A DNA stretch of 64,000 nucleotides from Patescibacteria group bacterium (GTDB taxonomy: Bacteria > Patescibacteriota > Patescibacteriia > UBA9570). Under the pieces are notes generated by a model. The model worked only from the letters and a program-made list of their open reading frames with translations. It had not been told where the DNA came from and made no database searches. The translations under genes were made by a program, and so were the position numbers. This document shows, piece by piece, positions 27,946 through 30,354 of the stretch (the stretch's first letter is position 1; each line of letters opens with the position of its first letter). The stretch covers positions 4,739-68,738 of the forward strand of contig JBAZWO010000002.1 of assembly GCA_041660305.1 (NCBI GenBank), in the 5' to 3' direction.

Positions 27946-30354
27946 ATGATTTTCTCCTGCAATTGGTTAAAAGAATATGTAAAAGATTTACCTAGTCCAA
28001 AAAAACTTTTGGAAGAGTTAACGTTGCATGCGGTGGAAGTGGAAAAAGTTATTGAGCCAACCAATAATATCGGCAATGTAGTGGTGGCTGAATTATTAGA
28101 AAAGCGCAAACACCCTAATGCTGATACATTAAATATTGGTTTATTTGACGTTGGCGAAGATAAACCAAGACAGATTGTGTTTGGTGGCAAAGCCGTTTTG
28201 GAAGTAGGTAATAAATTACCCATTGCTTTAGCGCCAACAAAAATTACTGGTAGTATTAAAATTGAAAAAAGAAAATTAAGAGGAGAAGTATCAGAGGGGA
28301 TGTGTTGTTTGAATTCCGAGTTAGGAATTTTTAACAAACAAGCCGAAGTGCATTTTTTTGAAAAAAATGTTAAAACTGGCACACCAGTCGTAAATTTTTT
28401 AGACAATGACTATCTGATTGATATAGATAACAAATCCATGACGCATCGAGCAGATTTGTTTTGTCATGTTGGCATGGCGCGTGAAATTGCGGCGGTATTT
28501 AATGTGCCGTTTTCACTACCTAAATTACAAACGTTCACTACTAAAACATTAAAAAAAATAAATATTACCGTAGAAAATAAAAAAGATTGTCCGCGGTATA
28601 TTGGTGTGGCACTGAACGTAACAATTGGGGAAACGCCGAATTTTATTAAGCAACGTTTAACGGCCTGTAATATAAAATCAATCAATAATGTAGTAGATAT
28701 TACAAATTATGTCATGTTGGAATATGGTCAACCGTTACATGCGTTTGCTGCGGATAAGATTTCTGGTGGAATTCAAGTACGATTAGCTAAAAATACAGAA
28801 TCACTAAAAACATTGAATGATGATGAGAATACCGAAACAAAATTAAATAACAACATTTTGGTAATTGCCGACGATACTAAACCATTAGCAGTAGCGGGGG
28901 TAATTGGTGGTAAAGAGAGCGCTATAGCACAAACTACTAAACGAATTATTCTTGAAGCAGCTACATTTAATGCGGTTACTGTGCGTATGGCGGCACAAAA
29001 AATTGGCGTGCGGACTGATAGTGTGTTGCGTTTTGAAAAAGGTTTAGCAACACAATTACCTCCTTTAGCGGCGGCACGAGCAGTGGAGTTGTTGCAGAAA
29101 TATGCTAATGCTAGAATCACAGATTACACAGATAAATACACAGATTACACAGATAAAATTCAAATTAATTTAAATTTTAAGCAATTAGAGCGTATTACTG
29201 GAATTACCTGGGAAGTAAAACAGGTACAGGCTATTTTGGAGCGCTTAGAATGTGAAGTAAAAATAACTAAAGCTAGTTTTGTAATAACTCCACCGTGGTT
29301 TCGTAAAGATTTGCAAATTCCGGAAGATATTATTGAAGAAATTGTGCGGATTTATGGCGTGGCTAAACTGCCAGAGCAACAATTAGCTGGAGTTTTAAGC
29401 GTGCCACAGCAGCAACCAGAATTTGTTTGCACCCGTTTATTACGCAAACAGTTAGCTAGCTTAGGTTTAACAGAAGTGTATAATTACTCTTTTTGTGGTG
29501 ACGTGTTATTAAATAAGGTAGAGACGCCTGTTGACCAGGTTGAAATTGCAAATCCGTTATCAGAAGATTTAAAATATTTACGCACCAGTTTATTGCCACG
29601 ATTATTAGAAACAGTAGCGCGTAACCAGGTTGGCGTAGAGACGCCCCGGCGGGGCGTCTCTACACCTGAATTAGCCCTATTTGAAATTGGTCATGTATAT
29701 TTTGCCGATCGCGAAACGCAACAATTAGCTATTGTAGTAGCCCAGCCAAAAGAAAATAGTTACCGTGTGTTACGTGGCTATGTAGAAGCGTTATTACAGC
29801 AATTACATGTGTCATATCAAACTGAATTAATTAAGCAAACAGCTACATGTCCGTTTTGGGGGATGTATGAAGGAAAACAGGCGCTCAGCTTAGCCCCTAA
29901 ATCCCCTAAAGGGGGCTTGCAAGAGGACAAAATCGGTACTGTAGGTATCGTTAATCAAACCATCCTTAATAATTTCGATATAAAATTAAACGTCAGTTTT
30001 GCTGTATTATCTATTCCAGTTTTAGCGAAACTAGCCACTAATACCTTTAAACTAAAACCTATTTCAGCTTATCCGGCCATACCATTAGATTTATCTATTA
30101 TTGTTGATCAAACAGTTACTTGGCAGAAAATAGAAATGATCGTAAAGCAACAAGCGGGTGATTTATTACAAGAGTTAAGTGTATTTGATATTTATGAAGG
30201 TGAAAAAATTCCAGCCGGTAAAAAGAGCCTGGCTTTTCACATGGTGTTACAATCCAATGAGCGTACTTTGGCCATGAAAGAAATAGAGCAGTGGCGAGAT
30301 GTGCTGGTGAAAAGATTAAATAAGGAGTTAGGCGCTGAATTGCGGGATAAATAA
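27946..30354 (+). CDS. pheT: phenylalanine--tRNA ligase subunit beta
   Basis: N-terminal tRNA-binding domain, B3/4 and B5 domains, and a C-terminal FDX-ACB-like domain; follows pheS. It carries two repeat-derived in-frame insertions. Confidence 0.93.
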   Translation: MIFSCNWLKEYVKDLPSPKKLLEELTLHAVEVEKVIEPTNNIGNVVVAELLEKRKHPNADTLNIGLFDVGEDKPRQIVFGGKAVLEVGNKLPIALAPTKITGSIKIEKRKLRGEVSEGMCCLNSELGIFNKQAEVHFFEKNVKTGTPVVNFLDNDYLIDIDNKSMTHRADLFCHVGMAREIAAVFNVPFSLPKLQTFTTKTLKKINITVENKKDCPRYIGVALNVTIGETPNFIKQRLTACNIKSINNVVDITNYVMLEYGQPLHAFAADKISGGIQVRLAKNTESLKTLNDDENTETKLNNNILVIADDTKPLAVAGVIGGKESAIAQTTKRIILEAATFNAVTVRMAAQKIGVRTDSVLRFEKGLATQLPPLAAARAVELLQKYANARITDYTDKYTDYTDKIQINLNFKQLERITGITWEVKQVQAILERLECEVKITKASFVITPPWFRKDLQIPEDIIEEIVRIYGVAKLPEQQLAGVLSVPQQQPEFVCTRLLRKQLASLGLTEVYNYSFCGDVLLNKVETPVDQVEIANPLSEDLKYLRTSLLPRLLETVARNQVGVETPRRGVSTPELALFEIGHVYFADRETQQLAIVVAQPKENSYRVLRGYVEALLQQLHVSYQTELIKQTATCPFWGMYEGKQALSLAPKSPKGGLQEDKIGTVGIVNQTILNNFDIKLNVSFAVLSIPVLAKLATNTFKLKPISAYPAIPLDLSIIVDQTVTWQKIEMIVKQQAGDLLQELSVFDIYEGEKIPAGKKSLAFHMVLQSNERTLAMKEIEQWRDVLVKRLNKELGAELRDK
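29114..29155 (+). repeat. family C arm inserted in-frame in pheT
   Basis: GAATCACAGATTACACAGATAAAT (29114-29137) is identical to the reverse complement of 19586-19609. It is followed by a partial tandem copy and encodes ITDYTDKYTDYTDK. Confidence 0.8.
29635..29663. repeat. family B palindrome inside pheT (GTAGAGACGCCCCG-G-CGGGGCGTCTCTAC)
   Basis: 14-bp perfect arms. It is codon-aligned and encodes [11 protein letters not shown] half-copy GTAGAGACGCC is also present at 29518-29528. Confidence 0.85.

Follow-up and report, generated by a model that had tools for sequence, protein, structure and literature searches.

A Family C repeat arm in the B3/4-B5 linker of PheT from a Patescibacteria bacterium: repeat-derived coding sequence at native length

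The DNA examined here, called the window throughout, is a stretch of 64,000 nt from an uncultured Patescibacteria group bacterium (assembly GCA_041660305.1, contig JBAZWO010000002.1, positions 4,739-68,738). It contains pheT, the gene for the beta subunit of phenylalanine--tRNA ligase. Inside pheT lies a short stretch which encodes a repeated Tyr-Thr-Asp (YTD) motif and which resembles the arms of a dispersed repeat, termed Family C. In the window Family C is represented by four arms at two loci and by the pheT copy. The features are as follows (window coordinates).

27946-30354, plus strand: pheT, phenylalanine--tRNA ligase beta subunit, 802 aa; aligns to the solved PheT chains 1b70_B and 3pco_B.
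29112-29137, plus strand: tract of 26 nt which matches the arm at 19586-19611 perfectly; an arm (2562-2585) of locus L004 from a different Patescibacteria genome is likewise identical to its 24-nt core.
29113-29157, plus strand: solo Family C arm in pheT, with four CACAGAT heptamers in a 2 x 21-nt arrangement; fills the gap between B3/4 and B5.
19586-19611, minus strand: Family C arm; abuts and overlaps the atpC stop codon; closest copy to pheT and possible conversion partner.
19104-19127, plus strand: Family C arm, 2 mismatches from the pheT core; forms an inverted pair with 19586-19609.
62346-62450, no strand assigned: complete two-armed Family C unit of 105 bp; long hairpin, 3 nt past the stop of a mgsA/rarA-like gene.

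The product of pheT has the full bacterial set of Pfam domains (tRNA_bind; B3_4, aa 215-388; B5, aa 407-471; tRNA_synthFbeta; FDX-ACB) in an intact frame. A preliminary description of this DNA had reported that positions 29114-29137 (GAATCACAGATTACACAGATAAAT) are the exact reverse complement of 19586-19609. The match was reproduced at 24/24 nt. It even extends to 26/26 nt (29112-29137 versus 19586-19611), where the identity ends in differing flanks. Allowing up to three mismatches, we found the 24-mer three times in the window and in none of 100 dinucleotide-preserving shuffles. Because the identity is exact over 24 nt, extends to 26 nt and has no counterpart in the shuffles, the match is not due to chance. 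The tandem said to follow it was recovered by Tandem Repeats Finder at 29118-29157 (period 21, 1.9 copies, 100% matches, no indels), a span which covers the ACACAGATTACACAGATAAA at 29138-29157 described earlier. Codons 29113-29157 specify R390-K404, RITDYTDKYTDYTDK, in frame and are followed by IQINLNFKQLERITG. A 42-nt span encoding ITDYTDKYTDYTDK had rightly been called in frame; its coordinates had to be corrected from 29114-29155 to the codon-aligned 29116-29157. The element sequence is open in only three of six frames (direct reading), and pheT uses one of these. As had been proposed, PheT is translated intact and at full length with the repeat-related stretch included.

Family C is a genuine dispersed inverted-repeat family which resembles transposable elements of the miniature inverted-repeat type (MITEs). 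Alignment of 12 extragenic arms yielded the consensus GAATCACAGATnACACAGATAAATACnGATnACACAGATAA, which consists of four CACAGAT-type heptamers. A 44-nt stretch of pheT fits this layout from end to end with 0/44 differences. Because the pheT stretch matches the four-heptamer arm throughout, its tandem is mostly a family trait. What had been called a partial tandem duplication is thus largely the normal layout of an arm and did not arise after an insertion. Peculiar to the pheT copy within the family is the perfect identity of its two halves at a period of 21 nt. The unit at 62346-62450 has a DNA fold of -20.4 kcal/mol (z = -5.65), and its right arm displays the same four-heptamer layout as the pheT stretch. 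The arm pair at 19104-19609 encloses an open reading frame (ORF) for a 112-aa PCC-domain protein (19142-19480, minus strand). The solo arm in pheT has neither a predicted structure nor an inverted partner within the gene. A scan of the window with an arm scoring matrix returned intragenic Family C matches in pheT only.

A degenerate arm pattern was searched in 185,579 representative genomes, the source genome not among them, and 28 loci were obtained. About two-thirds of these look like single chance matches; by our own estimate about 13 are expected by chance. L004, from a different Patescibacteria metagenome-assembled genome (MAG), carries six arms in 8 kb, one of them identical to the pheT stretch over 24/24 nt. 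These arms form two-armed units of 84-97 bp (1761-1844 and 2562-2658) and a pair around a PD-(D/E)XK (PDDEXK_3) ORF. Inverted-arm units with the same terminus were found in Phycisphaerae (as a perfect hairpin of 59 nt), Anaerolineae, Gemmatimonadales and a MAG labelled Ignavibacteriae; the units outside the window include L024 114-291 and the 59-nt hairpin at L010 5403-5461. Scanning of metagenome contigs for the arm pattern gave four loci only, and viral contigs gave none. The proposed relationship of the pheT stretch to a real dispersed inverted-repeat family was borne out: it is neither a chance match nor a private slippage repeat. A target-site duplication was not found, the flanks reading TT/TA, TA/AA, CT/AA and similar with no consistent direct repeat. 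No transposase was present in the window or beside any arm in the fetched loci, which cover a small part of each genome. Rfam contained no family for the element in gathering or E-value mode. In the literature we found no paper on the string CACAGATTACACAGAT and nothing relevant on MITEs in the Candidate Phyla Radiation (CPR). Extension of the window at its left end by 2.2 kb of new sequence disclosed no Family C copy, and no record of the MgsA-like protein was found.

Several arms lie flush with gene ends. The TAG stop codon of atpC overlaps the first base of its arm (19609-19611), the mgsA-like gene stops 3 nt ahead of an arm (62340-62346), and in locus L034 an ORF runs into an arm (300-325) and terminates at the in-frame TAA of the arm. 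The two 26-nt copies at 19586-19611 and 29112-29137 are inverted and 9.5 kb apart. Between them lie the ATP synthase operon, pheS and the 5' half of pheT, a block which would be inverted, with pheT split, if the copies recombined.

Where in the protein is the segment located? Residues 390-404 fill the 18-residue gap (aa 389-406) which Pfam leaves between B3_4 and B5. We compared 119 PheT orthologs, the window's own PheT being P0001. In an alignment of 30 of them the linker has 15 residues in the window as well as in P0004 and P0003. From L382 to G419 the PheT of the window has 38 aa; in 105 of the 119 orthologs this distance is 38-40 aa. Using phmmer, the region aligned to Thermus thermophilus PheT (1b70_B) free of gaps. 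The first eight residues, ITDYTDKY, fit a native pattern, V..[YFM]TD.Y, which is found clade-wide. In an AlphaFold2 model (mean predicted local distance difference test score, pLDDT, 87) residues 390-398 form a beta strand and the rest of the segment is a loop; the block means are 88 for residues 391-400 and 81 for residues 401-410. Features of a Rickettsia palindromic element (RPE) were absent from the pheT copy, i.e. there was no whole two-armed element and no extra peptide compared with the orthologs. The segment is not an added peptide; it sits in the native B3/4-B5 linker at native length. Nor was there any sign of a gained function which would justify the term exapted; the data fit a tolerated, length-neutral overwrite. 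The YTD-repeat peptide is not conserved in unrelated bacteria, in line with the preliminary description: TDYTD occurs exclusively in P0001 and P0004 among the 119 orthologs. A 74% match between 29158-29180, which encodes IQINLNFK, and the inside of the unit at 62346-62450 initially suggested that the similarity to Family C continues into B5. This extension was rejected. Past ACAGATAAA the identity is only 14/22 in AT-rich sequence, and the peptide is native B5 (MQIELDF in P0004).

The closest PheT orthologs are 58-59% identical, and among 5.8 billion proteins none exceeded 59%. At the same place as the window, ortholog P0004 (GCA_964655875.1) has a decayed two-unit copy, VTDYTDVNIDFTNN; its linker reads RVTDYTDVNIDFTNN and is encoded by AGG GTC ACA GAT TAC ACC GAT GTG AAT ATA GAT TTT ACA AAT AAC. 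This copy was evaluated with half-arm scoring matrices built from extragenic arms only. Unit 1 of P0004 scored 17.0 bits, a value reached by 0/82,598 background positions. The stretch exactly 21 nt downstream scored 5.3-7.5 bits, which about 3e-4 of the background positions attain. A 3-aa insertion near aa 291 is present in P0001 and P0004 only, and because of this exclusive indel the two are considered close kin. Identity of their pheT genes is 63% at the DNA level and 46% at third codon positions; that of the linkers is 71%, i.e. at the 72nd percentile of all 15-codon windows. As far as the sequences tell, this is ordinary divergence from a common ancestor in which the linker was already arm-like. 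Most likely the arm was captured before P0001 and P0004 separated, because P0004 carries the decayed two-unit arm at the identical site. The sister lineage thus keeps a decayed version, so the stretch has long been stable coding sequence. The partial ortholog P0060 has an ordinary linker.

The two copies have fared differently. P0004 differs from the window at 13/45 linker positions, while the window copy shows no difference from the arm at 19586-19611 over 26 nt and none from the arm of the other genome over 24 nt. If changes were evenly shared between both lineages, a Poisson mean of about 6-8 would be expected for the window, and zero changes would have a probability of about 1e-3 or less (our own estimate). 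The segment also uses codons which are rare in this genome, namely ATC (8% of Ile), TAC (22% of Tyr) and ACA (21% of Thr). For this peptide, such codon choices have a joint probability of about 6e-7. Because this choice is atypical for the genome, the DNA follows the element and not codon preference. The lack of decay together with the rare codons suggests a recent re-copying in the window lineage. A signature of gene conversion is present: an identical tract, unrelated flanks, unchanged length and a recipient which differs from its ortholog.

We therefore favor the following explanation, to which we assign a probability of about 0.5. The YTD repeat would be the native B3/4-B5 linker of PheT, the coding DNA of which was overwritten by one Family C arm in a length-neutral manner. 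Arm-like sequence would have entered the linker before the split of P0001 and P0004, perhaps eased by a native YTD core whose codons TAC ACA GAT already matched the element. The P0004 copy would then have decayed. The window copy, in turn, would recently have been copied anew, with a Family C arm of the genome as source, through short-patch ectopic gene conversion or through template switching, the former being the most likely route. In the same process the two units may have been homogenized, which would result in the 26/26 identity and the perfect 21-nt tandem. The peptide is most likely only a tolerated linker, with the first half modeled as a strand and the second as a loop, and probably has no new function. 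In other words, the coding sequence in this stretch of pheT stems from a repeat, but it did not arise as a new peptide by insertion and exaptation. The case varies a known phenomenon only modestly.

Several points weigh against the proposed overwrite and re-copying. The explanation gives no account of how the first replacement kept the length of the linker. The presence of Family C in the P0004 genome, whose contig is only 3.7 kb long, is presumptive. In a neighbor-joining tree P0004 grouped with P0002 and P0012 and was not an exclusive sister to P0001; the larger group was supported at 66%. The direction of copying between pheT and the arm at 19586 is unproved; that pheT was the recipient is suggested by its identity with the arm of the other genome and with the consensus. 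The 64-kb window yielded no donor arm whose two 21-nt units are perfectly identical, and in the known arms the unit spacing is about 2 nt shorter in the second half. Finally, the arms of the window differ from each other at 2-5 of 24 positions; a general concerted evolution of the family is not evident.

Could a single event suffice? The native linker (V-T-D-Y-T-D-V-...) may have resembled the element by chance, and YTD microhomology may have seeded one recent conversion patch, copied in the window lineage from a Family C arm. The similarity in P0004 would then reflect the native motif plus chance. We consider this possible but less likely. It is attractive in that one event is needed and not two. 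The motif V..[YFM]TD.YP is found clade-wide in many orthologs, P0020 has TAT ACC GAT at the same place, and both P0004 and P0002 continue with D-V (GAT GTG), which looks native. Further, chance near-matches which could serve as conversion targets exist in any genome. A purely native origin, however, explains less well that the second half of the P0004 linker is Family C-like as well and at exactly the 21-nt offset (background about 3e-4). Unit 2 of the window and the aligned codons of P0004 have an identity of 67%. This is close to the gene average of 63% and far from the approximately 30% of unrelated AT-rich sequence. Moreover, T2 and D3 occur in P0001 and P0004 only among the 119 orthologs.

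The model of the preliminary description was that a Family C element, or an end of it, transposed in frame into pheT and was kept as an exapted peptide; later deletions would have restored the length. In-frame insertions of MITEs and of palindromic elements are documented, e.g. those of the palindromic elements in Rickettsia (PMC10969869). At its left edge the match has a terminus of the family, and the same PheT does harbor a true in-frame insertion, which stems from family B:

29635-29663, no strand assigned: perfect family B palindrome of 29 nt (GTAGAGACGCCCCGGCGGGGCGTCTCTAC); translated in PheT as a true 9-aa insertion (VETPRRGVS).

This palindrome lies 480 nt downstream of the YTD repeat, as previously noted. 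The distance from N560 to E580 is 21 aa in the window versus 12-13 aa in 114 of the 119 orthologs, and the insertion is absent from all 118 other orthologs. It was modeled by AlphaFold2 with low confidence (pLDDT 58). The Family C segment looks different. It adds no net length compared with the 118 orthologs or with Thermus PheT, comprises one arm and not a whole element, lacks a visible target-site duplication, reproduces with its first half the native strand motif and gives no indication of a gained function. In-frame transposition of Family C is therefore improbable. Of the two independent repeat-derived peptides assigned to PheT earlier, the family B peptide is an added one; the Family C peptide is repeat-derived, yet it is not an addition.

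Family B palindromes are GTAG-headed and have the form GTAGAGACG...CGTCTCTAC. They were observed at 29635-29663 and 32203-32231 and also at 13705-13735 and 37912-37942; a related palindrome is in L034 (51-80). The copy in gyrB is inside a hypervariable acidic linker and nearly length-neutral (+3 aa compared with one ortholog, equal to another).

Next, the arm in pheT may have been held unchanged by selection on the DNA or RNA itself, either as a binding site for a protein which recognizes the arm or for regulation of pheT. Repeated conversion would then be unnecessary. The undecayed window copy (0/44 differences from the consensus, while P0004 differs from the window at 13/45 positions) would be explained. 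A second patch in the gene is relevant here:

28798-28839, plus strand: tentative second Family C-like patch in pheT, aa 285-298, ESLKTLNDDENTET; possibly an older, decayed copy.

The two patches in pheT are the only intragenic Family C-like patches of the window, and both are common to the window and the sister ortholog. The second patch scored 12.3 bits with the arm matrix and the homologous P0004 site (L001 1588-1629) 26.6 bits; the background did not exceed 3.8 bits in the window or 1.4 bits in the loci of the relatives. It coincides with the 3-aa insertion which is restricted to P0001 and P0004. Either an earlier capture or the codons for Thr-Asp (ACA GAT) could account for it. In addition, an unrelated MAG (RPQH01000154.1, Ignavibacteriae-labelled; L012 1317-1590, same sequence in L032) has an array of six tandem 27-nt Family C-like arms (TCTGAATCACAGATTTCACAGATATTA) with an inverted partner. 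The array is located about 125 nt upstream of pheT of that genome (1716-4127). Its proximity to pheT, the gene concerned in the window, is possibly a coincidence. Lastly, the B5 domain begins right behind the segment, and DNA binding has been suggested for the B5 domain of bacterial phenylalanyl-tRNA synthetase (PheRS) (PMC6035289, citing Lechler and Kreutzer, 1998; Dou et al., 2001). All of these associations were noticed post hoc and in small numbers. The P0004 copy decayed freely, so any constraint would be specific for one lineage, and the solo arm is without predicted structure. We know of no protein which binds Family C arms. Thus, selection on the nucleic acid has little probability, and the same low probability applies to a functional nucleic-acid site kept in this lineage with a specific link between CACAGAT-heptamer repeats and pheT or PheRS. 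The second patch, the upstream array and DNA binding by B5 leave a small chance for a specific connection between motif and gene.

A native slippage repeat in pheT, from which the Family C arms were derived or with which they converged, would fit the perfect 2 x 21-nt tandem and the native YTD core of the relatives. The same terminus, however, is found in inverted-arm units of other genomes (24/24 nt in another Patescibacteria genome, further in Phycisphaerae, Anaerolineae, Gemmatimonadales and the Ignavibacteriae-labelled MAG). A duplication would also add 7 aa to a linker which is not longer, and the codon choice is atypical for the genome. An origin by slippage is very unlikely and has largely been refuted already by the distribution of the family across genomes. 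An artefact of metagenome assembly by which repeat k-mers were threaded into pheT can hardly be correct. In its favor, the genome is repeat-rich, and the break of the independent contig L038 falls exactly on a family A repeat. Against it, frame and linker length are kept, the gene is collinear on both sides, a second assembly (ENA) is 100% identical over 22.4 kb including pheT, and a homologous version in decayed form exists in P0004, which stems from a different genome.

How does the overwrite of the PheT linker compare with known systems? RPEs are described as selfish repeats which are translated within protein-coding genes (Ogata et al., 2000; 2002; as far as summarized in PMC10969869). The similarity is that a dispersed family supplies translated sequence inside an essential housekeeping protein, at a site compatible with the fold, with intergenic copies in the same genome. 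Family B in this PheT actually corresponds to a miniature RPE, adding 9 aa in a loop of low confidence. In contrast, RPEs are whole elements of about 100-150 bp which add 30-50 residues, whereas here a single 44-nt arm replaces a linker without gain. One gene is affected in 64 kb, and the host belongs to the Patescibacteria (CPR) and not to Rickettsia. To our knowledge, repeats translated in essential proteins, familiar since the RPEs, have always been residue-adding insertions. New here would be a single arm which takes the place of an existing interdomain linker codon by codon, which has outlasted a speciation event and which remains family-identical in one lineage.

With MITEs of the Correia, ERIC and Nezha types Family C has in common short non-coding units (59-275 bp), terminal inverted repeats, hairpin potential and several copies per genome, and most copies are just past gene ends. 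It differs in that neither a target-site duplication nor a cognate transposase was found in the sequence examined. Further, its arms also bracket small genes (the PCC-domain ORF in the window, the PDDEXK_3 ORF in L004), and the pheT copy is a solo arm. Repetitive extragenic palindromes (REPs) and their associated transposases (RAYTs) come to mind because the genome has REP-like palindromes, i.e. family B, which starts with GTAG, and the TAACCC...GGGTTA palindrome at 15190-15254, as found around the Y1 transposase of L034. Family C, however, is AT-rich with repeated CACAGAT heptamers and not a GTAG-headed, GC-rich palindrome. The window lacks a RAYT gene, and at no locus is one associated with Family C; the RAYT of L034 has another repeat at its flanks. 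Ectopic gene conversion or template switching is reflected in the identical tract, the unrelated flanks, the unchanged length, a recipient unlike its ortholog and a donor consensus which is preserved. What differs from such events is the very short tract of 26-44 nt, and that the recipient is coding sequence of an essential gene. A length of 26-44 nt is near the lower limit for RecA-dependent exchange.

For PheRS there is no indication of a functional consequence. Should the route prove to be a general one, gene conversion would allow dispersed repeats to change variable linkers of proteins with no trace in their length, the signal that insertion screens depend on, and such overwrite events would be undercounted. 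The case also documents that at least four small repeat families are present in streamlined Patescibacteria genomes; two of them extend into coding sequence of the neighboring essential genes pheT and gyrB.

Other repeats were observed in the window. A palindrome family of the form TAACCC(A/C)C(T/C)GGG...CCC(A/G)GGGGTTA is represented at 15190-15254 by two adjacent copies with no RAYT gene. In L034 an IS200-like Y1 transposase (PF01797) lies between two copies of this palindrome (1326-1355 and 1808-1836), as is classic for REP/RAYT. A tblastn search with the L034 RAYT had no match in the window.

Family A repeats have the form CCTACCTCACCTCCC...CCTCTCCTCAAAGGAGAGGAGG and are located at 7337-7400, 21505-21541, 30345-30397, 32484-32542, 37448-37508 and 61058-61099. 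Related short hairpins, CCCTTTCCCCT...AGGGGAAAGGG, are at 7446-7478, 35631-35660 and 61012-61041. Family A repeats start at or just past stop codons, e.g. those of pheT and gyrB, and a role as terminator-like hairpins is therefore possible. The independent Logan contig L038 ends inside the family A copy at 7341-7400.

A GC-rich island at 32688-34661 (minus strand) has 52% GC compared with about 37% in its flanks and may have been acquired horizontally. It encodes a Cys/Asp-rich repeat protein of 657 aa with internal repeats of about 140 nt; a MopE-type copper-binding Pfam match was obtained in L002. A protein similar to the 657-aa one adjoins the Family C copies in L004.

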